Under the pieces are notes generated by a model. That model was given only the letters and a program-made list of their open reading frames with translations. It searched no databases and was not told the DNA's origin. The translations under genes were made by a program, and so were the position numbers. This document shows, piece after piece, positions 4,389-38,459 of a stretch of 64,000 nucleotides of DNA (position 1 is the first letter of the stretch; every line of letters starts with the position of its first letter). The stretch is from Patescibacteria group bacterium (GTDB lineage Bacteria > Patescibacteriota > Minisyncoccia > Minisyncoccales > JAHCRE01). The stretch is from positions 164,827 through 228,826 of the forward strand of contig JAHCRE010000016.1 in assembly GCA_020148145.1 (NCBI GenBank), in the 5' to 3' direction.

Positions 4389-4392
4389 CCCG

Positions 4393-5838: not shown

Positions 5839-5845
5839 ATTATTT

Positions 5846-6595: not shown

Positions 6596-6692
6596 CGACC
6601 GGAGCTCTACTCTGGTAGAGTGTAGGTCATAATTAGATAATCTAGTTTTTTTCATTTGTCTTTTTTACTTTTTCTTTATAATATAAAATTGT

Positions 6693-9014: not shown

Positions 9015-9046
9015 AGTTAATTAATTAATTTTCTTCAAAACCTAAA

Positions 9047-9081
9047 CCCCCCACCAGAATCTGGTGGGGGGTGGATTTTTT
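9047..9081 (+). terminator. Intrinsic terminator hairpin (ccccccaccag-aat-ctggtgggggg) followed by a T-run
   Basis: An 11-bp GC-rich perfect stem followed by tggatttttt, 33 nt after the stop codon of the TPR/ligase gene. Confidence 0.7.
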
Positions 9082-9185
9082 ACTCAAGCCGCCCAAGGAT
9101 AGCCGGCTTGCCCGCCTAAGTTTTACCGAAGGTAAAATTTGGGCGAGTCCATTTCAAGAACAAAACTTTGGATTTCAACTAAGAT

Positions 9186-12605: not shown

Positions 12606-12780
12606 TTTTCTCTTTTTTAATTTTTATTTAATTTTTGTCGCGTCGACCTTGATCTCGCGACCTTACGTATTAGTCACGAGTTTATCCCGTACCTCCTCCA
12701 CCAAATTTTGGCTGGGGGATGGTGTGGGGTCACGACTTTCTAATTTTTTAATATAAATGATAATTGATAGTTAAGCAACT

Positions 12781-13500
12781 TTATTCCTGTGGATAACTCA
12801 AGAACAGGATTTTTTCAAGGGCCTGCCCAAAATCTCCGACTTCAGAATCTTCTTTCGCTTCTTCAAAAAGTTTTAGCTGTTCATCGGTTAAAGTCTGATT
12901 TTCCAAATCCTTAATAAGAAGTTCAGCTATTGGTTCATATAGATCTTCTGGCTCTCTATCTTCACCAATTACTATTCCATGAGATTTTAAATTTTGAATA
13001 TTTCCTTCTAATTTTTTAATCTCAGGAACTATTTTCCGAGCCTCTTCGGGTTCTCTTATTTTAGCTAAATTTTTAGCCGCCTCGGAGACATTGGCCTGAT
13101 ACTCTTCAATGGCTGGAGCCAATTTTTTAATCTGGTTTGTTTCAGTAATTCTGATTAATTCCTCTAATCTTTTGTTGGCAAATTCAAGTTGAACTCTTGG
13201 TTTTTCCTCTCGGGAAACAAAAATTGCCCGGGTTTTTTCAGCAATCTTTTTTAGAGGGAAAATAAAGTCACCGGGCAAAGAATTTTTGGCAAAAACAAAA
13301 GTTCCAATTAAAACTCCCAGAACAACCAAAGTAGCCAAGGCAGGTTTGTATTGAGCCCCCCACCTTAGAAAAACAGAGAACAGTTCTCTGTAACTTGGCT
13401 GTTCGCCTAAAATTTCCTTTTTAGTCAAAACAACCCAGTCTTTTCTGGGTCGAATCTGGCGAAGTTTTCGAATTTTGCCAATGAGTTCTTTTTCAGTCAT
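12781..13500 (-). CDS. Membrane-anchored DUF5667-like protein, putative anti-sigma factor
   Basis: MTEKELIGKIRKLRQIRPRKDWVVL N-terminus, one TM, helical C-terminal domain; located immediately downstream of the ECF sigma factor gene. Confidence 0.45.
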   Translation of the reverse strand: MTEKELIGKIRKLRQIRPRKDWVVLTKKEILGEQPSYRELFSVFLRWGAQYKPALATLVVLGVLIGTFVFAKNSLPGDFIFPLKKIAEKTRAIFVSREEKPRVQLEFANKRLEELIRITETNQIKKLAPAIEEYQANVSEAAKNLAKIREPEEARKIVPEIKKLEGNIQNLKSHGIVIGEDREPEDLYEPIAELLIKDLENQTLTDEQLKLFEEAKEDSEVGDFGQALEKILFLSYPQE

Positions 13501-13537
13501 CCTAATAAGTATGACGGAAAAAATAGCCCTTTTATTA

Positions 13538-13566
13538 CACCCCGTTAGAAAATTTTTCTAACGGGG
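13538..13566. repeat. Intact perfect palindrome ccccgttagaaaatttttctaacgggg; the same 13-nt half-sites flank the GIY-YIG gene at 4385/4717
   Basis: Direct reading of the sequence; 10-bp arms plus an A/T centre. Related half-sites gtttctaacggtcg and gtttctaatggtcg also occur in repeats R1 and R2. Confidence 0.8.
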
Positions 13567-13675
13567 TTACAGTAAATTTACCCGGTAGAGCAACTTCGAC
13601 TTTCCCTTCCCAATAATTCTTGAATTCTCAGTCATACTTTGTGTTTTTCTTTTAGAAAAACACCTGTCGAAGTTG

Positions 13676-14850: not shown

Positions 14851-15030
14851 GCCCAGAGGGCTGGCCCCCGCCCTTTAGAAGAAAGGGCGGGGTTCGCTCC
14901 GCTCTTTAGACACCTCTCGGTTTCTAACGGTCGCCTAGGACGACCTGTTTTCCTACACAGAGCGATACCCAATCTCCCCGACCCCCTCTGTGCTTTTTGC
15001 TAAAATAAATTTTACCAAAAATAAAAACCT
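14851..15030. repeat. R1: ~175-bp GC-rich structured repeat, 98% identical to R2
   Basis: Near-identical to 16281-16465. Contains the hairpins ccagccc/gggctgg and ccccgcccttt...aaagggcgggg, a gtttctaacgg half-site and a terminator-like cacagag...ctctgtgcttttt. Confidence 0.85.
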
Positions 15031-16280: not shown

Positions 16281-16465
16281 GCCAGAGGGCTGGCCCCCGC
16301 CCTTTTGAAGAAAGGGCGGGGTTCGCTCCGCTCTTTAGACACCTCTCGGTTTCTAATGGTCGCCTAGGACGACCTGTTTTCCTACACAGAGCGATACCCA
16401 ATCTCCCCGACCCCCTCTGTGCTTTTTGCTAAAATAAATTTTACCAAAAAATAAAAAAGAGGTCA
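16281..16465. repeat. R2: second copy of the ~175-bp GC-rich structured repeat
   Basis: See R1; differs from R1 at only 3-4 positions. Confidence 0.85.
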
Positions 16466-16821
16466 AAACACCTTTTTCAACAAGGTAACAGTCACCTTTC
16501 AGTTTAATAGCAAAATTGGATTTGGCACGATTTTGATCAAATTAGCTTCAAATTTTAACAGGGTGACAGTCACCTAGTCAGTGGCAACTAATCACCGAGA
16601 AATATTGTTCCTTCTTCCCCATCTTGGTGTCCTACTCCTCCCTGAGCCTGGATGATTCCTTGAAAATCGCTGGATTGGTAATAAATCGCAATCCTTCCGC
16701 CGAATCGTGGACGACATTAGAACCTATTGGATGATTGCGAAAGAGGTTGTTTCTATACCAAATTATAGTTAGTGAGGTGAGGGACGGACGATGTTAGAAC
16801 CTGTTTGGTTCGGTAAAAGTT

Positions 16822-17328
16822 TTAATCTTTCCGTCCCACAACTATATAAACCGTGTCTGCTTGTAGTGATCCTCCGATTGAACTTGGTTTAACCTCACCA
16901 GAACGCAAGTCTATACCAACTTCGTTAAAGGTTTGACTAATTAAATTTACAACTGAATCCATATTTTTTCCTGTTACAAAAATCTTAAGAAAACCTGTAT
17001 AGTCATTTAAAGAAGTTTGATTTGTTGGAAGGACATTCCATCCAGCATCTTTAAACACCGAAGCAATCTCCTCTGCAAAATCTAAACTCTCTCCGTCCAA
17101 AAGACGACTTACCAGACCTACTTTACCTTTCTTTTTTGATAAGGTAACGGTAAGCTGATTTTTTTGACTAATTGATAAATGTCTTGGTTGAACTTTTTTT
17201 AGTTCTTGTTGAAATTCTTTTTCTATCTTTTTATTAATATAAATCTGACCAATTGTTCCAATTGCTGAAAGAATTATCCCAAGAATTATTAATCCATTAA
17301 AGATTGTTTGGAGATTATTAGCAGTCAT
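16822..17328 (-). CDS. Hypothetical N-terminally TM-anchored protein
   Basis: 168 aa; one TM then a soluble domain; followed 3' by the motif gggacggacgatgttagaacctgtt, which also occurs at 16708 and 17363. Confidence 0.4.
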   Translation of the reverse strand: MTANNLQTIFNGLIILGIILSAIGTIGQIYINKKIEKEFQQELKKVQPRHLSISQKNQLTVTLSKKKGKVGLVSRLLDGESLDFAEEIASVFKDAGWNVLPTNQTSLNDYTGFLKIFVTGKNMDSVVNLISQTFNEVGIDLRSGEVKPSSIGGSLQADTVYIVVGRKD

Positions 17329-17431
17329 AAATTTCTTAGTTTCTTATAAAAATTTAGCGGTTCCGAGGGACGGACGACATTAGAACCTATTTTATGGCCA
17401 AAAAAAGGTTAATTAAGATACCGAGTCATAC

Positions 17432-18172
17432 TTAAAATAATCGGTCAACCATCTCAGCAGATTCATCTTGCCCTCCTTTAACTTTTATAATCATCCCGAA
17501 TGATTTATTTTTAGGCATTTTTATCCAGTTTTTAGCCAAAAACCAAGCCGCTCCGCTTGTTCCCCACTCTCCAAGACCAGCAACAGCAATCCATACCCTA
17601 TTTGGAAAATTCTTCGGTATAATCTTTATAATGAAAGCATAATCATAAGTGCCATCTATTGAGAATTTCTTTTCTTCATTTTTTTTAGTAATAATAGCCA
17701 TCTCGGGGCCACTTGCATCAAAATCATAAAACACATTCTCTTCGTTTTGTAAAACATCTTTTGTTTTTAAATTGTTTAAACCGCCAATTGAACAAAATGA
17801 TATATCTAACTTATCCTCTATTTCTTCGTCAGAAATCAACTTCGGCGAAATATGAACAATTTTCCCGAAGGTTTCGGAAAGATATTTCACAGACCTTGTT
17901 TCTGCAAAAGAAACAACCGAAGATACTCTAAAACCACTGCCAGATTTATGATAATAAGGCCATTTTCTAATATCGCCCTTTTCATCGTAACAAGGTAAAA
18001 GCCTCATTTGGCCGTAAGTTAGGATAAAATTATCTATTGAATCTTTCCCAAATACACCTTTAAAACTACATTTATAATATCTTTTTTTAATTTCTGAATA
18101 AATCCAACCAAAAACTAAAACCGCGGCACCGCCAATGATGTTGTATATAATTTGTTCCAAATGATCATTCAT
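17432..18172 (-). CDS. Hypothetical TM-anchored protein with a C-terminal glycine-rich (AVAGLGEWGTSGAAW) putative nucleotide-binding loop
   Basis: 246 aa; no confident family assignment; adjacent to the MTase-Mrr fusion gene. Confidence 0.4.
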   Translation of the reverse strand: MNDHLEQIIYNIIGGAAVLVFGWIYSEIKKRYYKCSFKGVFGKDSIDNFILTYGQMRLLPCYDEKGDIRKWPYYHKSGSGFRVSSVVSFAETRSVKYLSETFGKIVHISPKLISDEEIEDKLDISFCSIGGLNNLKTKDVLQNEENVFYDFDASGPEMAIITKKNEEKKFSIDGTYDYAFIIKIIPKNFPNRVWIAVAGLGEWGTSGAAWFLAKNWIKMPKNKSFGMIIKVKGGQDESAEMVDRLF

Positions 18173-18285: not shown

Positions 18286-19557
18286 CTACATTATCGGCTT
18301 TTTCTTTTCCAGTAAATCTTTAATCGTTATTAATTTTATCTCTAACCCTTCTTTATTTTTAATCCGCGCTGCTTCCTCATAAGCACCTTTAGTAAAACTA
18401 AAAGCTACAATATAACCCTTTTTATAGCCCGCTCTTTTAAGTGCGGTTTCAAAATTATCTACAACATTACGTCCCGCCTTATCAGATTGTTTTACTTGTA
18501 TCCCTGCTCCTTCGGGAATAAAAATATTTCCTTTAATATAATACCCATCTAATCCCATATCTCCAACTTTCTTTCTACTTGATTTTGCTCTCATCTTATC
18601 TATTATCACCCAGTTTTGAAATTCAAATGGCTCTAACTTCTTTACTTCCTTTACAGTAGTCGGCATACCAACAACAATATAATTAACGCCCTCCGTAGTT
18701 CCTAAAGTTCGTTTTAATCGTCTCTGCATTATTTTAATTGCAGTTGGTGAGATATCTATTCCTATCCACTTTCTTCCTAATCGTTGAGCTACCGCTACAG
18801 TTGTGCCACAGCCACAGAAAGCATCTAAAACTACATCGCCCTTACTTGAGGATATTTTTATTATTCTTTCCAAAAGAGCTTCTGGCTTTTGGGTAGGATA
18901 ACCTTCTCGTTCTTTAGAAGTTGGTTGTATATGCTGTATTTCCCATACATCATGCAAAGGAACCCCTACATTTTCTTTCCCCCTTTTTATGTAATTTCCC
19001 TTCTCATCCTTCAATCTCTGAAGTTTGCCATTAATAACAGCCCTAATAGTATCCTCAATTACTTCAGGTTTAGAGTAAGGCTGATACTGAATATTAAATG
19101 TATAATCTTTTGACTTCGAATAGAATAAAATTGTATCGTGCATTCTTTGATAACTTTTAGAAACATTGCTCCATCTTTTATACCACCAAATAATCTCATT
19201 CCTAAAATTCTTTTTATCAAATATTTCATCTAACATAATCCTTATATGAGCGTTAGCGTGCCAGTCGCAATGTAAATAAAAAGAACCTGTAGGTTTTAAG
19301 GCTTCATACATTACTTGGACCCTTGGTTTTAACCAACCAATATAGTGTTCTATTCCTCCTTCCCACCTATCTTTATAACTTCTAACTTCAGCCTCGTCGC
19401 CCCAGACAATTTCGTACTGTTTGTGAGTAAAAAATGGAGGGTCGATATAAATTAAATCCACGCTCTCTTTTGGGAATTTAGCTACCTCCTCTAAATTATC
19501 ACCACAAATAAGCTTATTAACTTGCCAGAGTTTATTTTGTTCCTTTTGTATAGCCAT
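18286..19557 (-). CDS. DNA methyltransferase (N6-adenine/N4-cytosine, DPPF motif IV) fused to a C-terminal Mrr-like PD-(D/E)xK restriction-endonuclease domain
   Basis: IYIDPPFF (motif IV) and FCGCGTT (motif I, beta-class order); C-terminal GDMGLDGYYIKG...IQVKQ resembles the Mrr_cat D...(E/Q)xK core. Confidence 0.7.
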   Translation of the reverse strand: MAIQKEQNKLWQVNKLICGDNLEEVAKFPKESVDLIYIDPPFFTHKQYEIVWGDEAEVRSYKDRWEGGIEHYIGWLKPRVQVMYEALKPTGSFYLHCDWHANAHIRIMLDEIFDKKNFRNEIIWWYKRWSNVSKSYQRMHDTILFYSKSKDYTFNIQYQPYSKPEVIEDTIRAVINGKLQRLKDEKGNYIKRGKENVGVPLHDVWEIQHIQPTSKEREGYPTQKPEALLERIIKISSSKGDVVLDAFCGCGTTVAVAQRLGRKWIGIDISPTAIKIMQRRLKRTLGTTEGVNYIVVGMPTTVKEVKKLEPFEFQNWVIIDKMRAKSSRKKVGDMGLDGYYIKGNIFIPEGAGIQVKQSDKAGRNVVDNFETALKRAGYKKGYIVAFSFTKGAYEEAARIKNKEGLEIKLITIKDLLEKKKPIM

Positions 19558-20004: not shown

Positions 20005-20026
20005 GAAGGGCATTTGAATATGCCCT
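20005..20026 (-). terminator. Intrinsic terminator hairpin aagggcatttgaatatgccctt with flanking A/T runs
   Basis: Perfect 8-bp stem lying 3' of the stop of the 20026..20367 gene. Confidence 0.55.
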
Positions 20027-20367
20027 TAATGGGTTTTTAAAAGAGTGGGGCTGGATAGTTTTATTAGAAAGGTTGCAAGCTCCTCAGTAAATTTTGCGAT
20101 TTCGTCTTCCTCAAGAGAGTCGCAAATGTAGATACCGTGTGGCCTAACCTCAAGCCTACAAGGTGGATCAAAATGGACCGCTATAATCATTTTAGATTGG
20201 TCTTTCCCTTCCCGTTTCATCTCGGCCCATTTGCCACGGATTCTTCTTGCTGTGCTCATAAGTAGCTCTAAACAGAAGATTTCTTCTCCAGGTTCCTCTC
20301 GCATCCCAAAGAACTTCTTTTTATCATCAATGCGGGTCATCCTATATATCCAAACTTCCATTCTCAT
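20026..20367 (-). CDS. Hypothetical protein
   Basis: 113-aa ORF with its own terminator/promoter modules. Confidence 0.4.
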   Translation of the reverse strand: MRMEVWIYRMTRIDDKKKFFGMREEPGEEIFCLELLMSTARRIRGKWAEMKREGKDQSKMIIAVHFDPPCRLEVRPHGIYICDSLEEDEIAKFTEELATFLIKLSSPTLLKTH

Positions 20368-20546
20368 CCCTCCTTTAATATCCTATATTATAGAAAATTA
20401 AATTGCGTTTGTCAATCAACCCCGAGAAAAACTACGAACCAGAATAAATTCGGTTCACGGCTTCGCTCTCGGGGCGGGGGCGGCGGAAATAAAAAAGACG
20501 CATTTCTGCGTCTATAAAAAATAATTAGATAAAATGTCATCGGTGA

Positions 20547-20810
20547 TTATTCTTTGTAAACTCTGTAGCCCTTTCGAGCTCTATGATTAACCTTAAGGCC
20601 AATCGAATCACCAGTCTTAGCCTCTTCTATTTTCTCATGTTCGATTTCCATCGATTCAACTGTTTGGATAAAGTCAGTATCTATCCCTCCGACGATTCGA
20701 ATACTATCTCCCAGCCTTAGAGTATCAACAAGTTCAAGCACTGCTACTCCTATCTTGGAATAATAATGACTAACTGTCCCAATCAATTTTTCTGTTTCGA
20801 TTTCTATCAC
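20547..20810 (-). CDS. Small stand-alone EF-Tu domain-2-like beta-barrel protein
   Basis: 87 aa; GDSIRIVGG...TGDSIGLKV pattern typical of translation-factor domain II barrels. Confidence 0.45.
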   Translation of the reverse strand: MIEIETEKLIGTVSHYYSKIGVAVLELVDTLRLGDSIRIVGGIDTDFIQTVESMEIEHEKIEEAKTGDSIGLKVNHRARKGYRVYKE

Positions 20811-20941
20811 CTCCTTTTAAAAGAACAATATAGAAATATTAGCAAAATTAAAAAACTTGTCAAGTCAACCAAAACCCCGAGAAAAACACTCGGGGCGGAA
20901 ATAAAAAAAAGAGGCAAAAATAAGAGAGTTGCCTCTATTGT

Positions 20942-21220
20942 CTATTTCCTAAATTTTAAAGAACTACGCAACTTTCTTATTATTGATAGAAATCTCCAGT
21001 ATCTCCAATGATAGGAATATTCCCATTTCTGGATAGCCACTATTCCAAGATAGCAACCGAGAGCCCCAATTAGAGAAATTGCTGTTATCATCGCTGCAAC
21101 ATTAGCCCATAAAGCCAACGAGAGAAGAGACAAGACAAGCCATCCTATCGCACAGCACACTGCAAAGAAAATCAGATTAAGCATATTCTTAAAAAGAGCT
21201 TCTTCCCATGTATCACTCAT
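20942..21220 (-). CDS. Small membrane protein (2-3 TM)
   Basis: Hydrophobic 92-aa ORF preceded by a TTGACA-17-TATCTT promoter-like sequence and an AGGGATGAA Shine-Dalgarno-like sequence. Confidence 0.45.
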   Translation of the reverse strand: MSDTWEEALFKNMLNLIFFAVCCAIGWLVLSLLSLALWANVAAMITAISLIGALGCYLGIVAIQKWEYSYHWRYWRFLSIIRKLRSSLKFRK

Positions 21221-21241
21221 TTCTATTCATCCCTCTTTCTT

Positions 21242-21270
21242 CAAGATAATAAAAAATTAATGCCTTGTCA
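21242..21270 (-). promoter_or_regulatory. Sigma-70-like promoter (TTGACA ... TATCTT) for the 20942..21220 gene
   Basis: Reverse complement reads gatTTGACAaggcattaattttttatTATCTTgaagaaagagggatgaatagaaATG. Confidence 0.45.
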
Positions 21271-21362
21271 AATCGGCGGCTCCCCAAGAAGGGGCGGGCG
21301 GAAATAAAAAAGAGACAAAAAATGGGGATTTGCCTCTTTAAGTCACAGGCTAGCCGTGGTTC

Positions 21363-21677
21363 TCAGTAGTATTCGCCAGTAAAGGGGTCTTTCCGTCCAA
21401 ATCTGTGGTGCCAAACACCGCGACGCCAGATCTCTTGTAACTCTTCGCAATCCTCTTTTTCCTCTAACGAGATATCATGAATAACATGGTTTCTCTCGCT
21501 TGCTACCTCTATTTTTCCATTCCTATCTATGTGTACAATGTCTCCCTTCGTGCTAATGACAACTAGTTTTATTTCACCTTTCTCTTGTAATAACTTCTTC
21601 ACGTTTTCGACTTGCCTCTGAGCCTTAGCACGGAACCCTGCATATTTATCTTCTTTTTCTTCTCTAAGTTCTTTCAC
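21363..21677 (-). CDS. Hypothetical protein
   Basis: 104-aa ORF, charged and coiled-coil-like. Confidence 0.4.
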   Translation of the reverse strand: MKELREEKEDKYAGFRAKAQRQVENVKKLLQEKGEIKLVVISTKGDIVHIDRNGKIEVASERNHVIHDISLEEKEDCEELQEIWRRGVWHHRFGRKDPFTGEYY

Positions 21678-22121
21678 CTCCTTTTATTTTTAAAGAACGG
21701 TTTGGAGGTTCAAGGAATTGCACCTTGATTAATCTCAACTTGAGACCTCCACAAAATAAAAAACTAGCTCCTCAGTCTGAGGATCTAGTTTGATTTTATT
21801 ATTGATTAAGTTAGTATTCTAATTTTTCTAAATACAAACTCCCCAGACTAAGTTCTGCTAGTAAATTAACTGACATCATTTGTAAATTGTCTGAGAAGTT
21901 TCTCATATTACTAATTTTAGATGTTATATCAGAGAAGGTACCTTGTCAAGTCAAATCCAAAGAAAAACTCTCGGGGGCTGGCGGCTCCCCAGGGTGGACG
22001 TAATCAGAACTTGGTTTTGGGAGAGGTTTCCAACTCCAGAGATAGTAAAATTACCTACTACCACCCCATTTAAATAGGCGCCCAAACTACTCCTTTAAAA
22101 CTTTGTGTTTTTTAACAATTT

Positions 22122-22886
22122 CTATTTTGCTACTTGTTTATAACAATCCTCCTTTATATATTCCCCGTATTTTTTACAACATTCCTCTCTTGCAATTTTG
22201 TGACAATTAAAAAGCGGGTAATTAGAAACAACAATGGAATACCCATGCTCGTCTTTTATACACCATTCTTCAGATGCTTCCTTAGCTTTCTCACAAATAG
22301 TTGTGTCTTTTTTTCTTTCAGCTAGATATCTATAGCACATTTCTCGGATCATTCCTCCAGGAAGGCCACCAGAACCACCAAAGTCTAGTCTTATTTTTCC
22401 ACAAATGGTCGGATCTCCCTTCTTAATAGCTAAAGTGTTATAACATGAGGCTCTTTCTTCTAAAGAAACTTTTTCGCATGAGAACTCCTGCTCCGTCTCT
22501 CTTGCGATATGTGTAATACATAAGTTTTTATTCCAATTGGCACGAATACCAATAAGTATATTACAAAAACTTATATTTTTCGTTGAATAAGCCGCCTTTA
22601 ATATAAATCCACTAAATCCACCACCGACAAAAAGCAAAACAAAAGCAATCCCGCATATTATAAAAAGTAATTGATAATTATTTATTTTTTTCGCTAAAAA
22701 TTTTTTAGTAAGAACGAAAGCAATAATTTCTATTACATAAAGAGCAACCGATAAAATAAAGGAGGAGGCAAAACAAAAAAATTCAGTTGTTGGATCCCCG
22801 TAGCATACAAGTGCAGAATAAATCCAGCCAGAAAAGAAAAAAACCAGGGGTGGAATAATAAGGATTAAAAATGATTTTTTATTCAT
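22122..22886 (-). CDS. Hypothetical membrane protein with a Cys-rich C-terminal domain
   Basis: 254 aa, 3-4 TM helices at the N-terminus and a C-terminus with more than 10 cysteines. Confidence 0.45.
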   Translation of the reverse strand: MNKKSFLILIIPPLVFFFSGWIYSALVCYGDPTTEFFCFASSFILSVALYVIEIIAFVLTKKFLAKKINNYQLLFIICGIAFVLLFVGGGFSGFILKAAYSTKNISFCNILIGIRANWNKNLCITHIARETEQEFSCEKVSLEERASCYNTLAIKKGDPTICGKIRLDFGGSGGLPGGMIREMCYRYLAERKKDTTICEKAKEASEEWCIKDEHGYSIVVSNYPLFNCHKIAREECCKKYGEYIKEDCYKQVAK

Positions 22887-23092
22887 ATTATGAAATTATA
22901 TCACAAAACAAAACCCCAAGAAAAACTCTCGGGCGGCGGGCTTGCCATCCGAAGCCTTGGCGAAGGATGGCTCCCCTAGCTGGACGCGCCCGTCCGTAGT
23001 TCTCTTGTCCATCGAAGTTTTAACGAAGGTGGAAGCGAAGGAGGGATATTAGAATCTATTTAGTAGAAATATTTACTATTTAAGAATTACAT

Positions 23093-23698
23093 TTACTGCC
23101 ACTTTACTAAAAATTCATGATATTCGTCTCCTCGAAAAGGACATTTTGTTTCTTCACAGGTTGCCTTACTTCTAACTATCATCTCAACTACACTAGAGAA
23201 ATACCCAATAAGAGCTTGACAATGAAGTGGATGAAGACGGAAATTTTTAAGCCTTAGAATTGCATATCTTTTTTCTTTATTGAGTTCTATTGTTTTAAGA
23301 TCACCAACCGTAAAATGTCTTTTCCACATTTTTGGAGTTGCTTTAGCCATTCTCTCGAGCGAAACGAAAAACTTCATAAAAACTCTGATAATTAGAGAAG
23401 AAATTTTAGCTTCAAACCTCCCCATTTCTCTAAACTTTTCTTCGTTGAAATTAAAAAGTCTCTTAATGACTAAAAGGGTAATAGCCATTAATCCTATTGG
23501 GTAAAGATCCCTTGACCTTATTTCTTGGTATTTTATTGGATAACCAAGTTTTGCCATCGTATCTTCTAATTTCTTTAATCCTTCTTTTCCTTTTTCTTTG
23601 AGAACGAATTCTAATGTAGTTTTGAGTGGCTCCTCTTTTACTTCTCCTTCAATTTTCATTAATTCGTTAAATTCTTCTTTTGAAATTATTTGCTCCAT
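23093..23698 (-). CDS. Hypothetical protein (possible V4R/ligand-binding-like fold, weak)
   Basis: 201 aa; the C-terminal HCQALIGYFSSVVEMIV...CEETKCPFRGDEYHEF pattern is loosely like V4R domains. Confidence 0.35.
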   Translation of the reverse strand: MEQIISKEEFNELMKIEGEVKEEPLKTTLEFVLKEKGKEGLKKLEDTMAKLGYPIKYQEIRSRDLYPIGLMAITLLVIKRLFNFNEEKFREMGRFEAKISSLIIRVFMKFFVSLERMAKATPKMWKRHFTVGDLKTIELNKEKRYAILRLKNFRLHPLHCQALIGYFSSVVEMIVRSKATCEETKCPFRGDEYHEFLVKWQ

Positions 23699-23913
23699 AA
23701 TTTTTCTTTATTAAAATACTATATTTTTATTTTAGCAAAGGTTTCCCCAAAAAACAAAAACCCCGAGACTACAACCCACCCAAGGACGGGGCGTTTCGCT
23801 CTGCGAAAGCGCCTCGCGTCCCGACCACATCCTCCCGCCTTCGGCGGGCCCCTAAACTCTCGGGCGGACGGCGGAAATAAAAAAGAGGGTAGATTTTTTA
23901 ATACCACCCTTTT

Positions 23914-24150
23914 TCATTTTTCAGCTGGGCTAATTGCCAAGCTTACCTCTTGTTCGACAATCTGCGTTTTGAAATTCCACATTATTCGCTTGTTGCCTTT
24001 TTTAAAGACCCAAAGGTCTTCTCCATAGACAAAGACATATTCCCAGCCTTGCTCTTCTAGCTCTTTCCTGCTGATTTTCTTGCCTTTGGTCTTATTTCCC
24101 TCCTTTTTTCTTTGTAATCTTATCTTACCATACTGTAAAAAAAAGATCAA
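23914..24150 (-). CDS. Hypothetical small protein
   Basis: 78-aa ORF, weak support. Confidence 0.25.
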   Translation of the reverse strand: MIFFLQYGKIRLQRKKEGNKTKGKKISRKELEEQGWEYVFVYGEDLWVFKKGNKRIMWNFKTQIVEQEVSLAISPAEK

Positions 24151-24279
24151 GTCTAAAAATAAACCCCGAGAAAAACTCTCGCCACGTCAGGCGTGGCGAG
24201 GGACGGGCTGCGGGGTGCTTGTTTTAAACTCTTCCGTAAGCAAACGAGTGTTCTAATTTGCTCTCATTTTTTAGTCATT

Positions 24280-26790
24280 TTAAAAAGGTGGAATCTCCCT
24301 CCACTCAGGAAGCTGCATCCCAATGCCCAGGGTCCTGGCTAGACTACAACCATAATCATCACTATCAGTAACTGTTAAGATTATATTGTAATTTCCGAGG
24401 GAAGAATAGGAATGAGTTGGGTTTTGATCGGTTGAGCTTTGACCATCTCCAAAATTCCAGAACCAACTTTTTGAAGAATCATGAAATTGACTCAGATCCG
24501 TAAATTGAATTACCTCTTTAGCGGTTGGATCTTCTGGTAACCAGTCGAAATCGGGCTCAGGAAAGGGGTGAGTCGTCTGAAAAGGGGTTCCTGGTCGAAG
24601 AGTAGTTTCACCAGGAGGATTGGGAGGATAAATCCAATCAGAAGGCTTATTGTCCCTGTCCCAGACTTTTAGGCTCCAATAATATGTTTTACCCCAGGAA
24701 AGTCTTTCCCCTGATTTCTGGAAAACATATGATGAAGCACTACTGAATATCCTTCCCGTCTCTGCTGCTAAAGATCTAAAGTCAGGATCGTCATCGACCT
24801 CAATTTTAAAGGCTGACTGACTATCTCCGGGATCATAAAATTCCCAATTAACCCTGACTGGAGGATGATCTGGATAACCTATATAGGGAGGACAGTAATC
24901 TGTAGAGTTAGGAGGAGTGACGAATAAATTGTGAGCTGTGGGCGGGCTGGGCGGGCCAGATTTTTCAATAGTGATTGTAGCTGAATCAAAGTCAGAAGAA
25001 ACAAATTCTTCAACAATTTCCATCAAAGAGCTTCCCGTCAAGTTGCCGGTGACATCGGTTGATGGTTTGCTGCCGGAATATTCAAAATCAATCTGAAAAT
25101 TTATCTTGTCGCCAGCACCTAAAGTAAACTTTATGGGCAAGGAAGTACTAATCGAAAAATTCTCCACATTCTGTAATAATTTAATTTCAATGTCAACGGG
25201 AAAAGAACCAAAGTTCCAGATAGAGTTATTAAAGGTTGAAACAGTGTTCTGACCAGCTGGTAAATAAACATCTTCTAATTCAAGGTCAAGGCCAGGAGCA
25301 AAACTTCTTTTAACCTGATCTATTGGTTCATCTAAACCTGTCCGGGGATGATTCTTCCAAATGGTGGTAATATAAAGTTTATAAAGTTGATTAGAGGGGA
25401 TTTGATCAATATCAGGTATTTTATAGAAAAAAGAATAAGCCCGACCATTGTCGTCACGAAAAATAGGATCACCGCGTCCATCACGGGGAACAGGGCGAAC
25501 TCCTGGTTCTTGGTTTAAATCTTTAACCAAGAATTTATAATGCCTAACTGCTGTTGAAGCATCTTGATACCATTTATCTCCATCTTTAATAATCTGAATA
25601 TCAATATCGTAATCATCTCCGTCAACAGTTTCATTGTATCGAGTATTAGGATTCCGTAAATTAAAATAGGCATTATAGGCTGGACTGGCGCCTAATTCTG
25701 TACTCGTGGTAGAAAAAGCACCCGGATCTTGAACCCCGAGATATTTACCAGTACCATACCCTATTGTTACTAAGACATCGCTATAAGATAAATTCTCTAG
25801 TATTTGGCTGCAACTTGAATCAAGGCAAAGACTATAACGATAACTGGCATCAAGTAGGCTTAAGTTAACATTTCTTGTATCAGGAGAATCAATCTCATTA
25901 ATAGTAGCGGTTTTGTCTTGTCTTAAAGTTTGGTAAGGATTAAGAGTAATAATTTCTGAATCGAAATCATGACGAAAGACAGCTTCGCGGTAACGGGCAT
26001 GCCAAGTTCCAGCCAGATGAGAGTAAAAATCGGCGTCTTCTAATTTTAAATAAACAGTATTTGAAGAAAAATTCCGATAGGTACAAGTATTGCTGTAAGT
26101 GCCGTTGTATACTATTTTCTGGCTAGTATATTCACAACTAATTCCCGGAGGGGAAAAATCCGGACCATCGGCATAAATAATCGCTTTATAGTAATAATCT
26201 TCATTAGGCATCATATTACTATCAGACCAACCTAATCTGATCGGTTTCCAGAGATAACCTTCTGGTAAGTCTTGAATTATGCCTTTGGAGATTTCATATT
26301 TTGTCTCGTTTGGAAATAAATAACCAAGGCGTTGGATGGACCTGCCACGAATAACCCAATTAGTAAAAGAAGCTGCTCTTCCCCATCGCCCCTCGTAACC
26401 AAGAGTGGCTCTAAGTGCTTCGATTGGGTCATCTCCAGTATTTTTGACAGTATAACGAGCATAAAGTTCAGAGTGAGCAGTGGTATCAACCTTGGCAATC
26501 TTATCCCCTTCATAGTTGAATCTACTGGGTAGACTGCCACCATACCATTTGGTTGGAGCACCAGGAGCAACTTTATAAACCTTTCCGCCATAGGTTGGAC
26601 CGTTGGTATCTTCAATCCAAGCGATTACTCCCTTGCCAGTTGCTGGGTCATAATTACCGAACTCAGGATCATCAATTGAATATTCAATAAGTGTCATATA
26701 AGCCTCCTGCTTAGCTGAAACTCCACGAGCAACTAAAAGAAAAAAGAATATCAAAAGAAATAAAATTAAAAGATTAAACTTTTTCATCAT
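24280..26790 (-). CDS. Large secreted protein with signal peptide, FN3-like regions and a C-terminal PKD domain
   Basis: N-terminal MMKKFNLLILFLLIFFFLLVARGVSA signal; WFWNFGDGQSSTDQNPTHSYSSLGNYNIILTVTDSDDYG is a PKD-domain signature. Confidence 0.6.
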   Translation of the reverse strand: MMKKFNLLILFLLIFFFLLVARGVSAKQEAYMTLIEYSIDDPEFGNYDPATGKGVIAWIEDTNGPTYGGKVYKVAPGAPTKWYGGSLPSRFNYEGDKIAKVDTTAHSELYARYTVKNTGDDPIEALRATLGYEGRWGRAASFTNWVIRGRSIQRLGYLFPNETKYEISKGIIQDLPEGYLWKPIRLGWSDSNMMPNEDYYYKAIIYADGPDFSPPGISCEYTSQKIVYNGTYSNTCTYRNFSSNTVYLKLEDADFYSHLAGTWHARYREAVFRHDFDSEIITLNPYQTLRQDKTATINEIDSPDTRNVNLSLLDASYRYSLCLDSSCSQILENLSYSDVLVTIGYGTGKYLGVQDPGAFSTTSTELGASPAYNAYFNLRNPNTRYNETVDGDDYDIDIQIIKDGDKWYQDASTAVRHYKFLVKDLNQEPGVRPVPRDGRGDPIFRDDNGRAYSFFYKIPDIDQIPSNQLYKLYITTIWKNHPRTGLDEPIDQVKRSFAPGLDLELEDVYLPAGQNTVSTFNNSIWNFGSFPVDIEIKLLQNVENFSISTSLPIKFTLGAGDKINFQIDFEYSGSKPSTDVTGNLTGSSLMEIVEEFVSSDFDSATITIEKSGPPSPPTAHNLFVTPPNSTDYCPPYIGYPDHPPVRVNWEFYDPGDSQSAFKIEVDDDPDFRSLAAETGRIFSSASSYVFQKSGERLSWGKTYYWSLKVWDRDNKPSDWIYPPNPPGETTLRPGTPFQTTHPFPEPDFDWLPEDPTAKEVIQFTDLSQFHDSSKSWFWNFGDGQSSTDQNPTHSYSSLGNYNIILTVTDSDDYGCSLARTLGIGMQLPEWREIPPF

Positions 26791-27243: not shown

Positions 27244-27516
27244 AAATTTTAGAGTTAAAAATCGAGGTCTTCGACCTTTTATTCTATTATACCTTAATTG
27301 CCCGCAAAACGAAAACCCCAAGACTACAACCCACCCACCACATCCTCCCGCCTTCGGCGGGCCCCTAAACTCTCGGGGGGTCCCGCAAGATGACTGCGTC
27401 ATCGCGGGACTCACTCAAAACGGCTTGCCACGAGATGGCGAAGCCATTTTTCGTGGCTCCCCCCCAACTGCACGTCATTCAAACCTGTTTAACAAAATAA
27501 AAGCTATTTCAATTAT

Positions 27517-28518: not shown

Positions 28519-28561
28519 ATAATTTTATTATTAAACTTACATTCCGACCTTTCGTTTCTAT

Positions 28562-28760
28562 TCTACCAAAAAACCGCCTTCTTGGCAATTAGAGACGGTG
28601 GGTCTACCCGAGAAAAACTCTTGGGCAGCGGCTCCGGCGGTAGGACTCGAACCCCTCTCGGTCGCCCTAGCGCTATAGGCGTCTCGGTCTCCAGAACGAG
28701 CTCACTGGCTCCGAGGGTGGGACGTAATCAGAACTTGGTTTTGGGAGAGATTTCCTTGTT
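28562..28760. repeat. GC-rich mosaic intergenic element containing a tRNA-3'-end-like ggctccggcggtaggactcgaaccc module and a gacgtaatcagaacttggttttgggagag module
   Basis: The 35-nt gacgtaatcagaacttggttttgggagag is shared exactly with 22001-22040; the tRNA-like module is shared with 35060 and 41680. Confidence 0.6.
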
Positions 28761-28860
28761 TAGAATCGATAAAATTGCCAATTTTAAGTTCTGTAAAATA
28801 AAAACAGCCTCAATATTAAATCAGGGCTGTTTTTAATTATTTTTCTAGGATACTACTCTC

Positions 28861-30210
28861 CTACTCTCCCGGTACGGTTTTATCGAAAAATAGTACGCCG
28901 CCACCACCTGTCCCACCGGCCACCATATAGTTTCCATCTGAAGAAATACAAGCGTGTCCCATACTCATAGGGGTAGGAATGGGAAAATCCTCGTGGGACA
29001 TTAGCAAAGTTGAATATTCCCACAAAGGAACACTGCTGTCTCTCTGAAAAAAATAACAACCAAACTCACCTACTGCCGCTATATGCTTACCATCAGCAGA
29101 AATAGCAACGGAACTAACGGTAGCTCCAGTGTTAGAATCAGAGGCATAACTCCAGAGAGGAACACTACTGTCTTTCTTGAACAAATAAACGGTGCTGCTG
29201 TTAGCCTCATCTCCGTATCTGAAAGCAGATACTGCTAAATATTTGCCATCTGAAGATAGGGATACAGAACAGTAATCACATTCTAATGGATAAGTCCAAA
29301 GCGGCGTGCCAGAATCTTTGCTAAAAAAGTACAACTTATTTGAGCTTCCTGCTGCTACATAATTACCGTCTGAAGATATGGAAATGGAATAGAGGTCAAA
29401 ATTTTTCGCTCCACCCGTTTTATAGCTCCATAAAGGCGCAGCAATTAGACCAACGGGTCTCTGACCTATGATTTCGGCATCTCTTTCGAACAAATATATC
29501 CTTTGCTGATCCGCCAAACTCGGACAAACTGCTGCCACATAATTGCCATCTGAGGATATTGATGTCTCGACTCGAGACAGGTTAAAATCAGCAAGTTCAC
29601 GGCTCCATAATATCTGGCCATCTTTTGAAACCAAAAAAAGCTCACCATAATTCTCCATACCTACTGCTATGTAATCTCCATCAGCCGAAATGGAAACAGA
29701 ACGAAGGGGAACCCACTCATCTTCCTCGAGGTCAAAAGGACGAAGGCCCTTAATCCATAAAGGAGTAGGATTATCTTTCTGAAAGAAGTAAAGCTTGCCA
29801 TCGGTAACAGCAAAAGTGCCCACTGCGATATAATTGCCATCCGGAGAAATGGAGACTGATTGGACTTCAAGGTCATCAACTTGATAATTCCACAGAGGGA
29901 TAGAACTGTCTTTTTCGAAGAAAAGAACATTGTCTGGCCCATAGGCGTCGGAAGCTCCAGCTACTATATAATTTCCATCTAAAGACATTGAGATACCACC
30001 CTCATTCAGGCCCCCATAGGCAATCCAATCCTCTGTAAAATACCACCACAACGGCTCTTTTTCAGTCTTTTTCTCAGCCTCTTCTTCAACTTTTCCGTTC
30101 GATGGAACCGCGCCTTCTTCTTCTACTTTTTTCTCCCCACATCCAGCACCTACCAAAACTAAGACAACTAAAAGTAAAAACAGAACAAAAAATTTTAACT
30201 TGTTTTTCAT
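28861..30210 (-). CDS. Lipoprotein with beta-propeller repeats (WD40-like/PD40-like blades)
   Basis: Lipobox LVGAGC, then at least 8 repeats of about 45 aa containing S(I/V)SIS(A/S)DGNY(I/V)A(A/V)G and LW(N/S)Y. Confidence 0.6.
   Translation of the reverse strand: MKNKLKFFVLFLLLVVLVLVGAGCGEKKVEEEGAVPSNGKVEEEAEKKTEKEPLWWYFTEDWIAYGGLNEGGISMSLDGNYIVAGASDAYGPDNVLFFEKDSSIPLWNYQVDDLEVQSVSISPDGNYIAVGTFAVTDGKLYFFQKDNPTPLWIKGLRPFDLEEDEWVPLRSVSISADGDYIAVGMENYGELFLVSKDGQILWSRELADFNLSRVETSISSDGNYVAAVCPSLADQQRIYLFERDAEIIGQRPVGLIAAPLWSYKTGGAKNFDLYSISISSDGNYVAAGSSNKLYFFSKDSGTPLWTYPLECDYCSVSLSSDGKYLAVSAFRYGDEANSSTVYLFKKDSSVPLWSYASDSNTGATVSSVAISADGKHIAAVGEFGCYFFQRDSSVPLWEYSTLLMSHEDFPIPTPMSMGHACISSDGNYMVAGGTGGGGVLFFDKTVPGE
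30074..30196. repeat. About 123-bp exact direct repeat, copy 1, encoding the shared lipoprotein signal peptide and linker
   Basis: Identical to 30791-30913; encodes FFVLFLLLVVLVLVGAGCGEKKVEEEGAVPSNGKVEEEAE in both genes. Confidence 0.85.
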
Positions 30211-30250: not shown

Positions 30251-30925
30251 TTAAAAAAATGGTATTTCCATTATCTGGACACCGGCTGGTAATTCAAATA
30301 TGCTATTAGAGATATCACCAAAATCTATATTCTTTATCTCTACCACAGTTGTGCCTTTAGCTGTAGTCCCTTCTGTCCTAATAGGAATTCCGTACCTTGT
30401 CCATATCCACATTTTTACCTCTTCTGTCTCAGTACTGTATTCAACAACCAGACAGGTTTTCCCATCCAGGACTTCAGTGCCAACAGTCACCGGATTATAA
30501 TCCATCACCGACTCAGATTGTTCGGTCGGAGATTCTCCAGCCGTTCCCCTGGCTTTACTCCAATCCATTTTCATAGCTATATTCTGAGCTGGAACATAGA
30601 GATACGCCAACTGCTCTCCCGCATCTAGTAGGTAGACTCCAGTATATCCTTCAAAAGTTCCCTCTACTCTCATATTTGTTCCTTTATACCATACCTTTGT
30701 TGTTATTGCTGCTTGGTCAGGAGCAGTTACTACCACATCATACTTAAGGGAGACAACATCTTTCGCCTTGTCCAAAATATCAGTTAATGATTCAGCCTCT
30801 TCTTCAACTTTTCCGTTCGATGGAACCGCGCCTTCTTCTTCTACTTTTTTCTCCCCACATCCAGCACCTACCAAAACTAAGACAACTAAAAGTAAAAACA
30901 GAACAAAAAATGCTATTTTGCGCAT
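30251..30925 (-). CDS. Lipoprotein, LolA-like/DUF4367-like fold
   Basis: Same lipoprotein leader as the upstream gene, then a beta-rich domain of about 180 aa. Confidence 0.5.
   Translation of the reverse strand: MRKIAFFVLFLLLVVLVLVGAGCGEKKVEEEGAVPSNGKVEEEAESLTDILDKAKDVVSLKYDVVVTAPDQAAITTKVWYKGTNMRVEGTFEGYTGVYLLDAGEQLAYLYVPAQNIAMKMDWSKARGTAGESPTEQSESVMDYNPVTVGTEVLDGKTCLVVEYSTETEEVKMWIWTRYGIPIRTEGTTAKGTTVVEIKNIDFGDISNSIFELPAGVQIMEIPFF
30791..30913. repeat. About 123-bp exact direct repeat, copy 2 (lipoprotein leader cassette)
   Basis: See copy 1. Confidence 0.85.
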
Positions 30926-31655: not shown

Positions 31656-32032
31656 ATGATTCCCCCAATAATCATTAAATCAGCGATATTAAAAATAGAA
31701 ATAGGCAGAAAGAAAACTTTAATCCAGTCAATCACATAGCCAAAATAAATTCTGTCAAAAAGATTGCTCAAGCCACCCAAAATAATCAAAGAAAACCCGG
31801 TTATTAAAAGAAAATCCTTTTTCTGCCAACTCCTGAAAAACAAAAAAAGAAGCAGTAATGTTACTGCTCCGATTAAAAAATAAAGTAAACTCGAATTTAG
31901 AGGAATAAAATACAATTTTGGATTTTTAAACAATAGCTCTGAATCCAAAGCTAACCATTTGGTCAATCTATCCAGAATTATTAAACCCAAAGCAAGAAAT
32001 ACTAAAAATCTTGCTCTATTTAGGTATTTCAT
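31622..32032 (-). CDS. lspA: Lipoprotein signal peptidase (signal peptidase II)
   Basis: LDRLTKWLAL...NLFDRIYFGYVIDWIKV...FNIADLMI matches the LspA conserved D/N/FNxAD boxes; overlaps lgt by 34 nt. Confidence 0.75.
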   Translation of the reverse strand: MKYLNRARFLVFLALGLIILDRLTKWLALDSELLFKNPKLYFIPLNSSLLYFLIGAVTLLLLFLFFRSWQKKDFLLITGFSLIILGGLSNLFDRIYFGYVIDWIKVFFLPISIFNIADLMIIGGIICLIFRLAKSR

Positions 32033-32042
32033 CTTCAGGCAT

Positions 32043-34919: not shown

Positions 34920-34924
34920 TCTAC

Positions 34925-35130
34925 TAAAAAACCGCCGAAATGGCGATTAATTATGGTAACTCAGCCCCGAACATGGTTCGATATCCTAGCGGGGTATGGG
35001 GATATTTTTTCTCGAACCTTTCAAAAATATGAGGCCTTTCGGTCTCCCGAAAGGTCTCACTAGCCTGCTCCGGGGGCAGGACTCGAACCCCTCTCGGTCG
35101 CCCTGTCAGGATAGGCGTCTCGATCTCTTA
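34925..35130. other. Conserved GC-rich structured leader-like element, copy A (about 130-nt core plus tRNA-3'-end-like module plus ctcggtcgccct module), ending in a terminator hairpin abutting the BNR gene start
   Basis: Alignable with 36783-36945 and 41545-41710. Contains ggttcgat...tctcgaac long-range stems and gcaggactcgaacccc. Confidence 0.7.
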
Positions 35131-36765: not shown

Positions 36766-36782
36766 TTTTCTCTATTTTATCA

Positions 36783-36945
36783 AAAAATCGTCGCGATGAC
36801 GATTTTTTCTTTGTTCGGAAAAGTTCGATTTCCTAGCGGGGTAGGACGATATTGTCTCGAACTTTTTCTGAAAATAAGATGGGGCTCGGTCACTCGAACC
36901 GAGCACTAGCCTGCTCCCCCTATTGGACGCGTTCAGAACTATTGA
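36783..36945. other. Conserved GC-rich structured leader-like element, copy B, immediately upstream of the PHP phosphatase gene
   Basis: See copy A; the terminator-like hairpin cgtcgcgatgacg plus T-run lies 15 nt from the start codon. Confidence 0.7.
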
Positions 36946-37820: not shown

Positions 37821-37869
37821 CTTTCTACAAGTTGTTAATGCGCTACTTCTAAAATTATATCATTTCATT

Positions 37870-38451: not shown

Positions 38452-38459
38452 ATCTTTTA

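Follow-up and report, generated by a model that had tools for sequence, protein, structure and literature searches.

Recurrent terminator- and promoter-like modules between small genes in the chromosome of a Nealsonbacteria-related Patescibacteria bacterium

The DNA analysed here (the window) is a stretch of 64,000 nucleotides of contig JAHCRE010000016.1 and is chromosomal DNA of a Nealsonbacteria-related bacterium of the Patescibacteria, or candidate phyla radiation (CPR). It has a GC content of about 35% and carries nearly all of its genes on the minus strand. Genes for FtsA, FtsZ, HisRS, ClpB, HtrA, ComEC, NrdD, LspA/Lgt, GreA, YbeY and a signal peptidase identify it as part of a bacterial chromosome rather than of a phage. 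We describe a run of small genes at 20.0-24.3 kb and the short sequence modules in the spacers between them. An original prediction had noted seven short minus-strand genes of 78-254 aa separated by spacers built of shared parts, which the list of open reading frames (ORFs) and motif searches confirm. Based on the ORF list, a domain scan and homology searches, the run at 20026-24150 (minus strand) consists of seven small monocistronic genes, each of which is probably transcribed independently:

20026-20367, minus strand, ORF of 113 aa
20547-20810, minus strand, ORF of 87 aa
20942-21220, minus strand, ORF of 92 aa
21363-21677, minus strand, ORF of 104 aa
22122-22886, minus strand, ORF of 254 aa
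23093-23698, minus strand, ORF of 201 aa, V4R-like
23914-24150, minus strand, ORF of 78 aa

These genes had been taken for orphans in the main, which is not borne out: they are a mixture of a large conserved family, a gene with a conserved neighbour, a near-orphan and a true orphan. The 201-aa V4R-like protein, identical to KJA15_02990 of the NCBI metagenome-assembled genome (MAG) "Patescibacteria group bacterium", belongs to a family of over 500 homologues (54-70% identity), in which single genomes hold several paralogues and which includes relatives in complete Candidatus Nealsonbacteria genomes. The 78-aa gene travels with this family and again adjoins a V4R gene at locus L105 of another genome, there between clpB and mraZ. 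For the 254-aa protein there is one relative only, and the 104-aa protein, without a homologue among 1.84 billion representative proteins, is the only true orphan. A proposed likeness of the 87-aa protein to EF-Tu domain 2 scores 26 bits, under the Pfam threshold of 30.3, and is not upheld. Strain polymorphism of the region was not found, the other contigs with these genes being all from the same sample and identical. V4R-like paralogues are a strongly expanded family in these bacteria, with two adjacent copies in several genomes and six paralogues of 200 aa within 11 kb at 2985-13584 of JAUXFW010000008.1 (locus L095).

Read in the direction of transcription, that is, on the minus strand, the spacers present their parts in an invariable order: T1/M3, M1, M2, M4 or M5, and then the promoter, with M1 optional. 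T1/M3 is a gene-specific intrinsic terminator (hairpin and T-run) that continues into a conserved tail, TTTTTTATTTCCGCC, of the general form TTTTTTATTT(CCGCC); the tail sequence GGCGGAAATAAAAAAGA occurs in 4 copies, compared to 0.12 expected. M4 is a GC hairpin of 8-9 bp, CCCGAGAG-TTTTT-CTCTCGGGG, followed by a T-run. The elements of the run, and the M4 copies beyond it, are as follows:

20420-20473, minus strand, M4 with a type a loop insert (CGAAGCCGTGAACCGAATTTATTCTGGTTCGTAG), closing stem and T-run retained; -27.9 kcal/mol, z -4.6
20482-20513, minus strand, T1 and M3, tail TTTTTTATTTCCGCC
20875-20895, minus strand, M4 CCCCGAGTGTTTTTCTCGGGG, then TTTT, TTGACA (20863) and a -10 element; -15.2 kcal/mol, z -4.1
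20894-20936, minus strand, T1 and M3
21275-21295, minus strand, GCCCCTTCTTGGGGAGCCGCC, the GGAGCC end of M1 without M4
21297-21339, minus strand, T1 and M3
21956-21976, minus strand, M4 with a degenerate 3' arm, then TTGACTTGACA and a -10 element ending at 21921
21980-22013, minus strand, M1-family element CAAGTTCTGATTACGTCC-ACCCTGG-GGAGCCGCC, tRNA-3'-end-like (repeat family D13)
22914-22934, minus strand, M4, then a T-run and the extended -10 element TGATATAAT (22895-22903), with an ATG 8 nt after it
22969-22995, minus strand, degenerate M1-family element ending GGGGAGCC, then a hairpin (22944-22971)
23761-23864, minus strand, M4 with a type b loop insert that carries a further, nested hairpin of 42 nt (repeat family D19)
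23870-23910, minus strand, T1 and M3
24164-24184, minus strand, M4 with its 5' arm replaced or extended by the hairpin CTCGCCACGCCTGACGTGGCGAG (24178-24200)
27316-27377, minus strand, M4 with a type b loop insert, without the inner hairpin
28606-28626, minus strand, M4 outside the run
37882-37902, minus strand, perfect M4 outside the run, then CTTGAC and TGATATAAT (37854-37862)

Searched as CCCCGAGAAAAACTCTCGGGG on the plus strand, M4 gave six matches at no more than three mismatches (20875, 21956, 22914, 24164, 28606 and 37882), compared to none expected in shuffled sequences, and in three more copies the loop is extended by a long insert (20420-20473, 23761-23864 and 27316-27377). The nine copies in the 64 kb are all located within 18 kb, at 20.4-37.9 kb. 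Folding energies range from -10 to -19 kcal/mol, and the best copies reach a z of about -4. All ten copy positions listed originally are real. The spacer at 21221-21362 has no M4 and holds only a terminator tail and GCCCCTTCTTGGGGAGCCGCC. The hairpin is not the bidirectional terminator it had been called, because a T-run follows M4 on the minus strand only and CGG follows it on the plus strand.

Just after the hairpin, four spacers have TTGACA-17-TAnnnT; the copy at 20420-20473 is followed by TTGACA-17-TATAAT (20415-20387). In a fifth spacer, the promoter is the extended -10 element TGATATAAT at 22895-22903, and the mRNA is probably leaderless given that the ATG lies 8 nt past it. A promoter element reading cttgtcaag had been proposed in the spacers, and the TTGACA-type sites stand, but the 9-mer CTTGTCAAG alone is not above chance (15 found, 14 expected). 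With regard to their sequence, the spacers thus appear to be stereotyped terminator and promoter brackets around monocistronic genes, as suggested earlier.

The inserts in the three window copies add 34-83 GC-rich bases to the M4 loop and leave the closing stem and T-run intact. Type a inserts are present at 20420 and at 4270 and 5056 of L093, another scaffold of the genome to which the window belongs, and type b inserts at 23761 and 27316; one copy of each type holds a further hairpin in its own loop. Two V4R paralogues have homologous promoter regions (window 23699-23913 and L093 4968-5203) that differ in the M4 loop insert. Similarly, a GC-rich insert of 48 nt splits an M1 module in CP179887. 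Small GC-rich insertions thus occur and survive where the closing stem is unbroken. We rejected the possibility that the nested loop inserts are a high-copy mobile family, as most are single-copy in about 300 kb of sampled DNA. GC-rich segments are also found in frame within two genes of the window, at 59736-59813 in a YqeY-like gene and at 50984-51031 in a glycoside hydrolase family 1 gene. They encode the Ala/Pro/Ser/Gly-rich sequences AALQASLSPRSTQGEAGAPSERE and LLPKGEPRPKGGPPKK in otherwise Lys/Glu-rich proteins and are reminiscent of the in-frame Rickettsia palindromic elements.

Across the loci sampled, M4 is polar, as the upstream gene runs in the same direction as the terminator in 39 of 50 spacers, and a regular-expression survey found a T-run after 49 of about 59 forward-oriented M4-type hairpins. 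M4 also stands 8-14 nt downstream of real tRNA-Gln and tRNA-His genes. As a stable GC hairpin with a U-tract downstream of a gene, it would qualify as an intrinsic terminator. A promoter-like site lies within 60 nt after 49 of 67 M4 copies (73%); 29 of these sites have a TGn extended -10 element, and 30 have a -35 element matching at least 4 of 6 positions. The distance from hairpin to -10 element is 7 nt where an extended -10 element is fused to it, or about 23-45 nt where there is a -35 element. In 11 M4-linked cases the start codon lies 6-8 nt past the -10 element, which implies leaderless mRNAs. By comparison to its orthologue in the MAG CR_Bin_053, one gene of the window's genome is 81% identical in its DNA, and identity rises to 100% over the 60 nt that lead from the M4 T-run to the ATG.

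A scan of one genome per GTDB species with the query CCCRAGWGTTTTTCTYGGG returned mostly single matches in unrelated taxa, and multiple matches in four Patescibacteria MAGs, CR_Bin_053 alone having at least 17 over eight contigs. In the loci of these four MAGs, M4 is almost invariant, and 33 of about 59 copies read exactly CCCGAGAGTTTTTCTCGGG. Three complete Nealsonbacteria genomes and one further MAG, which were found through homologues of the 201-aa protein and not through the modules, possess this system too, their M4 loop being slightly altered (CCCGAGATTGTTTCTCGGG). Near-identical M4, M1 and M5 are thereby present in at least seven related genomes, complete Nealsonbacteria genomes included; the module-bearing genomes are CR_Bin_053, CR_Bin_039, Modern_marine.mb.304, CSMAG_1234, JAUXFW01 and the three complete Nealsonbacteria genomes. 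In the first four, the proteins compared are only 28-78% identical to those of the window. Among loci that had been picked without regard to the modules, one or more modules were present in 30 of 52 co-directional spacers. In CP179887, M1 occurs about once per 2 kb, also after AIR-synthase-like, methyltransferase, YceG and sigma-factor genes. Comparable series of small single-gene units are found at L007 4219-7800, at L028 and at L093 1100-6200. The modules are a lineage-wide repertoire and not the mark of a special island. The region had been proposed as a possible hypervariable island; this does not hold, because in the window and in other loci alike the modules occupy about half of the spacers of at least 45-50 nt, and they follow tRNA genes and precede housekeeping genes. 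The picture goes part of the way towards a generic module between core genes, with about half of the spacers occupied and the genes being mixed. Our literature search found no paper with these module sequences, and nothing relevant on CPR repeats or integrons.

M1 has the form AAACAGGTTCTAACATCGTCC-N7-GGAGC and occurs in 46 copies at no more than three mismatches in the sampled loci. Three canonical copies are present in the window (16709, 16786 and 17372), together with degenerate ones at 21980, 22969, 28707, 36904 and 37905. M2 is AGGCTAGTG plus a T-arm-like hairpin. M5, AATCGCC-loop-GGCGATTTTTTGGTAGAAT, is a terminator with a T-run that runs directly into a TGn extended -10 element; in other spacers it takes the place of M4, in the form AATCGCC-loop-GGCGATTTTTT. 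Its window copies are at 28560, 34920, 36774 and 38459. Outside the run, the spacers with these modules are:

16709-16801, minus strand, two canonical M1 (16709-16724 and 16786-16801) after the gene at 16822-17328
17372-17387, minus strand, canonical M1 after the gene at 17432-18172
28560-28737, minus strand, composite spacer with an M1-like element (28707-28737), a tRNA-Asn-3'-end-like piece (28630-28655), M4 (28606-28626) and M5 (28560-28590), the last a terminator fused to an extended -10 element
34920-35091, minus strand, tRNA-Asn-3'-end-like piece and AGGCTAGTG trailer hairpins (35056-35091), then M5 (34920-34948)
36774-36942, minus strand, M1-like element and M2 (36904-36942), then M5 (36774-36804)
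38459-38566, minus strand, tRNA-end-like piece (38541-38566), then M5 (38459-38489), directly upstream of a 2-thiouracil desulfurase gene
41541-41704, minus strand, tRNA-3'-end-like piece ending GCCA (41677-41704), then M2 and an M5-like terminator (41541-41577)

M1 resembles tRNA from the T-loop through the acceptor end, and window copies such as GGGTTCGAGTCCTGCCGCCGGAGCCA (41677-41704) are almost perfect tRNA 3' ends. In the commonest form, 5 nt are inserted in the T-loop (GGTTCTAACATCGTCC), and different species have this insertion conserved. In Modern_marine.mb.304, a real tRNA-Asn ends GGTTCGAGTCCTACCCGCGGAGC and is followed by a AGGCTAGTG-hairpin-TCATATTTTGAAAG series, and the same series occurs in the window at 35176-34920, 37034-36766 and 41718-41520. 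In CR_Bin_053, an M1 subfamily bears the acceptor end and trailer of the neighbouring tRNA-Gln. ARAGORN found no tRNA in the window, and Rfam no family, whether in the window with gathering thresholds or at 14-42 kb with a permissive cut-off (E up to 5). M1 was rejected as a tRNA gene or pseudogene, there being no ARAGORN or Rfam match and only the part from T-loop to 3' end being mimicked. It was also rejected as a structured RNA, since no Watson-Crick covariation emerged when 116 anchored copies were scanned for mutual information, and, by inspection, as a dif/Xer-type site, since it has one arm-like half and no inverted second arm.

The reverse complement of M1 is a frame without a start codon whose amino acids are conserved, L-[PGR]-x-x-D-[DA]-[FVI]-R-T-x-x-W-x-[EK]-[VI]..., and which meets a stop after 5-30 codons. 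Several M1 subfamilies differ in nucleotides and keep the same antisense residues; differences at the three codon positions number 300, 202 and 344, and the substitutions look codon-like. The peptide occurs on the plus strand of the window at 21997-22055 and 28721-28779, and at L004, L016, L019, L023, L034, L082, L093 and other loci, in forms such as DDFRTLRWEEVFKYPEVALKQMKELL* (with the stop), DAFRTIDWREIKK... and DVIRTWFWERFP... A parent protein was found neither in Pfam nor among 5.8 billion proteins, where only ORFs of 33-80 aa with unrelated N termini matched. In the PDB, the peptide marginally matches a helix of the colicin E9/E7 DNase, DDFRKAVWEEVSKDPEL (E 0.19), a lead and not a result; it has no similarity to the window's own HNH endonuclease.

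A phage or prophage origin of the run was rejected, as the seven proteins gave no PHROG match and M4 and M1 are essentially missing from IMG/VR. That database yielded only two M4 and three M1 matches. The M4 matches are a plain terminator in two AT-rich jumbo contigs; one M1 match lies inside a Dcm-type methylase gene and is probably due to chance, and one other is an AT/GC junction at a contig end. At L098 14700-14819 (IMG/VR uncultivated virus genome 3300009529_003397), a canonical terminator and M1 are located at the extreme end of a viral contig of 52% GC, where an AT-rich composition gives way to a GC-rich one precisely behind GGAGC; the junction is either genuine or a chimera of the assembly.

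The explanation that we favour, and hold to be fairly probable, is that the modules are a lineage-wide composite terminator/promoter punctuation resembling the promoter-early stem-loops (PeSLs) of phages and probably also serve as joints for the shuffling of single genes. In each spacer, transcription would meet a gene-specific intrinsic terminator with its conserved tail (T1/M3) and then, optionally, M1, a primary-sequence motif resembling a tRNA 3' end. M4 or M5 would halt read-through from the upstream unit, and the attached sigma-70-type promoter (TTGACA-17-TAnnnT, or TGnTAnAAT fused to the T-run) would restart transcription, so that the modules would act as compact terminator/insulator-promoter punctuation. 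As the same 20-70-nt sequences recur between many genes, they would provide patches of homology for the exchange of units. Promoter-gene-terminator units may be inserted, deleted or exchanged at such patches or at M1 as a recombination site.

In T4-type phages, PeSLs are conserved cassettes of a stem-loop and a promoter between small genes, for which experiments have demonstrated termination and promoter activity as well as a part in single-gene indels and in the formation of mini-circles (Arbiol et al. 2010, PMC2839356; Comeau et al. 2014, PMC4122927). They are the closest known system, and on sequence evidence the modules would work alike, yet do not belong to the same family. PeSLs and the modules are each conserved and composite, measure about 100 bp or less, and pair a GC-rich stem-loop terminator with a strong sigma-70-type promoter, both predicted in the case of the modules. 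The genes between which they lie are small, co-oriented and frequently orphans, and each cassette is equipped with a promoter and a terminator of its own. Of the single-gene indels between close relatives that are bounded by two PeSL copies, we have one clean counterpart. By contrast, the modules reside in a cellular (CPR) chromosome and not in a phage, and their hairpin either precedes the promoter or merges into an extended -10 element, whereas that of PeSLs lies between the -35 and -10 elements. Unlike PeSLs, the system also has the additional modules M1 (tRNA-end-like), M2 and M3 and nested loop inserts, is used genome-wide, flanks tRNA and housekeeping genes, and is known here from sequence alone.

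The indel is seen around a V4R gene where CP179890 and CP179889 are 96-97% identical. A 497-bp unit made up of an M5 promoter and a gene for a 2-thiouracil desulfurase of 142 aa is present in CP179890 and missing from CP179889 (L091 9423-9919 compared to L092). Two direct M1 copies flank the unit, and CP179889 has a single M1 at that place. The desulfurase has 79% protein identity to the product of the window gene at 38038-38496, and only 62% to the paralogue elsewhere in CP179889. Orthologous single-gene units also stand in different neighbourhoods in related genomes, in line with the exchange of units suggested in the original prediction. Two genes shared by CR_Bin_053 and the window's genome, of 390 aa (78% protein identity) and 70 aa (89%), have each retained their promoter and terminator but not their neighbours, and homology stops inside the module zone. 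Of the earlier suggestion that units are swapped together with their brackets, the gain or loss of one promoter-gene unit between module copies is thus in accord with the idea, but the special island is not. The mechanism of recombination would be as outlined above.

Several observations weigh against this explanation. We infer actual termination and initiation at the modules from consensus alone. Of the 33 window spacers longer than 45 nt, the 17 with a module are confined to 16.2-41.7 kb, and the others have ordinary unique terminators. The module-bounded indel is the one clean case, and five to six other breakpoints in the same 20 kb fall off the modules. Despite the near-identical flanks of the indel, any two of its three M1 copies have 8-9 mismatches over 28 positions, which argues against a simple deletion or homologous recombination between identical repeats. 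Synteny is weak evidence, since any breakpoint that leaves the genes on both sides intact is bound to lie in a spacer. The M4 loop and stem and a 16-nt M1 core are conserved far beyond the needs of a terminator, which points to sequence-specific recognition or active spread. Finally, a terminator/promoter model does not account for the conserved antisense peptide of M1, the main reason for keeping a more novel reading of M1 in play.

Alternatively, the modules could be selfish non-autonomous repeats, of the type of repetitive extragenic palindromic (REP) sequences and bacterial interspersed mosaic elements (BIMEs) or of miniature inverted-repeat transposable elements (MITEs), distributed in trans by an enzyme such as a Y1 transposase resembling the REP-associated tyrosine transposases (RAYTs). 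They would be tolerated behind genes where a hairpin is harmless, and terminator and promoter activity would be incidental. We regard this as unlikely. The spacers are BIME-like mosaics of several short motifs in fixed order, and the identity among copies and across species exceeds functional need. GC-rich hairpin inserts occur in M4 loops, in one M1 and in frame in two genes, and two paralogous V4R promoter regions differ precisely by such an insert in M4; however, most of the nested inserts are single-copy in the DNA sampled. The window contains no transposase, RAYT or integrase, and aligned copies of M1 and M4 have no terminal inverted repeats or target-site duplications around them. The modules are polar with transcription, have a promoter in 73% of cases and, as M4, stand behind tRNA genes, as a functional terminator would. 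BIME/REP sequences of enterobacteria and Pseudomonas can act as terminators, RNA stabilizers or recombination points. Like the modules, they are extragenic GC-rich palindromes after the 3' ends of genes and form multicopy mosaics of few motifs in a set order. Unlike them, M4 has no GTAG-type head (two loop inserts end in GTAG), no doublets were seen, no RAYT gene is found in the window, the promoter is integral to the unit, and one module is non-palindromic and tRNA-like. Compared to MITEs, the modules have conserved cores and lack terminal inverted repeats and target-site duplications at the borders of aligned copies.

M1 could be the recombination site of a previously unknown integron-like cassette system and its antisense frame (L-P-x-x-D-D-F-R-T-L-x-W-E-E-V...) a relic of the source element or gene, which we consider rather improbable. 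A narrower version, to which we give slightly less credence, has M1 serve a tyrosine recombinase, perhaps one of Xer type, as its site of attachment or recombination; the enzyme would recognize the tRNA-T-loop-like core GGTTCTAAC, and every promoter-gene-M1 unit would be a cassette. M1 is a primary-sequence motif without RNA pairing and resembles tRNA 3' ends, the classic targets of integrases, and M1 subfamilies bear the acceptor end and trailer of the tRNA-Gln or tRNA-Asn of the same genome. At the indel, the two M1 copies differ from each other and from that of the empty site, as hybrid att sites would. Locus L076 has the order tRNA-Gln and M4, one gene, Gln-like M1 and M4, and co-oriented small genes form regular arrays (gene, M1, Mx, M4). 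No recombinase adjoins any array examined, however, and M1 has no inverted binding arms. It also follows housekeeping genes, at the density seen in CP179887, and mobility rests on the single indel. Integron arrays similarly contain small, co-oriented genes, often of no assigned role, each with a conserved repeat after it, and gain or lose single genes between repeats. The original prediction had reported neither integrase nor attC, and we agree: domain scans of window ORFs of at least 90 aa found no Phage_integrase domain and thus no intI, and a search for attC cores (RYYYAAC...GTTRRRY) on both strands of 20368-24280 found no R''/R' pair. Unlike integrons, the system has no R''/L''-L'/R' inverted structure, each unit has its own promoter and terminator, and the repeats are dispersed genome-wide and not collected in one array. 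M1 and M1t copies are also comparable to the displaced tRNA 3'-end repeats of genomic islands, as they reproduce the part from T-loop to acceptor and some match the trailer of tRNA-Gln or tRNA-Asn of the same genome, but there are dozens of them per genome, each beside a single gene and without an integrase.

The stretch from M1 to M4 could instead be a small RNA of about 70 nt or a 3'-untranslated-region element with a tRNA-like tail, acting in processing or stability or as a multicopy regulator, and with M4 as its own terminator. This is very unlikely in our view. M1, linker, M4 and T-run do form a compact unit of 60-75 nt in many repeats, with T-loop-like and acceptor-like sequence, that often begins 0-40 nt past the upstream stop codon. 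But a complete intrinsic terminator often precedes M1, so that M1 would frequently not be transcribed, and there is no consistent promoter upstream of it. Moreover, no Rfam family, partial tRNA match or ARAGORN hit was obtained, and M1 has neither covariation nor conserved pairing. Uptake sequences for competence, in inverted pairs within terminators as in Neisseria, seem most improbable: ComEC is encoded at 51558-53045 and M4 is a palindrome of a conserved 8-mer common to related species, but the nine M4 in 64 kb, all within 20.4-37.9 kb, are far below the density of known uptake sequences, their placement is strictly intergenic and polar, and the loop is as conserved as the arms.

The CPR, or Patescibacteria, make up a large share of bacterial diversity and are mostly uncultured; to our knowledge, almost none of their promoters, terminators or mobile-element biology has been mapped. 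A compact regulatory grammar of hairpin, T-run and extended -10 element, often with leaderless mRNA, would improve the calling of genes and operons in these bacteria, and its sequence-conserved parts would supply components for genetic tools. If the modules were indeed joints for exchange, they would explain the turnover of accessory genes in tiny genomes without obvious transposons or integrons and would extend the PeSL idea from phages to cells. M1, which resembles a tRNA end and has coding-like conservation on its antisense strand, may point to a new kind of recombination site.

A number of further features were observed in the window. Just upstream of the run, a gene at 18286-19557 encodes an N6/N4 DNA methylase fused to an Mrr-type restriction endonuclease domain. 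A free-standing homing-endonuclease gene (NUMOD3 and HNH) lies at 5080-5910 inside a sugar-nucleotide/polysaccharide cluster and adjoins short ORFs (3591-5022) that resemble pieces of a UDP-glucose dehydrogenase. A strongly folding GC-rich segment of 175 nt is present in two copies, 98% identical, at 14853-15027 and 16282-16456, preceded by TTTTTGGTAAAAT; it may be a duplicated small RNA gene, and the ENA scaffold of the genome ends inside the first copy. The 747-nt spacer between htrA and clpB (45198-45944) contains a very GC-rich, strongly paired segment of 121 nt (45811-45931) without an Rfam match, and the 450-nt spacer at 60181-60630 has a GC-rich structured 5' part (60430-60630), also without an Rfam match. 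A tandem repeat of 156 nt (32022-32333, 93% identical) is located inside a 454-aa Cys-rich gene, and a repeat of 129 nt (30074-30202 and 30792-30920, 97% identical) is common to the 5' ends of two neighbouring genes. The motif AAGGTCGRA is found about 35-40 nt upstream of many start codons, at about 28530 and 30240 in the window and at about 3020, 5900, 8040, 9080, 10390 and 15170 in L093, several of the genes having secreted or membrane-bound products; this distance is too great for a Shine-Dalgarno sequence.

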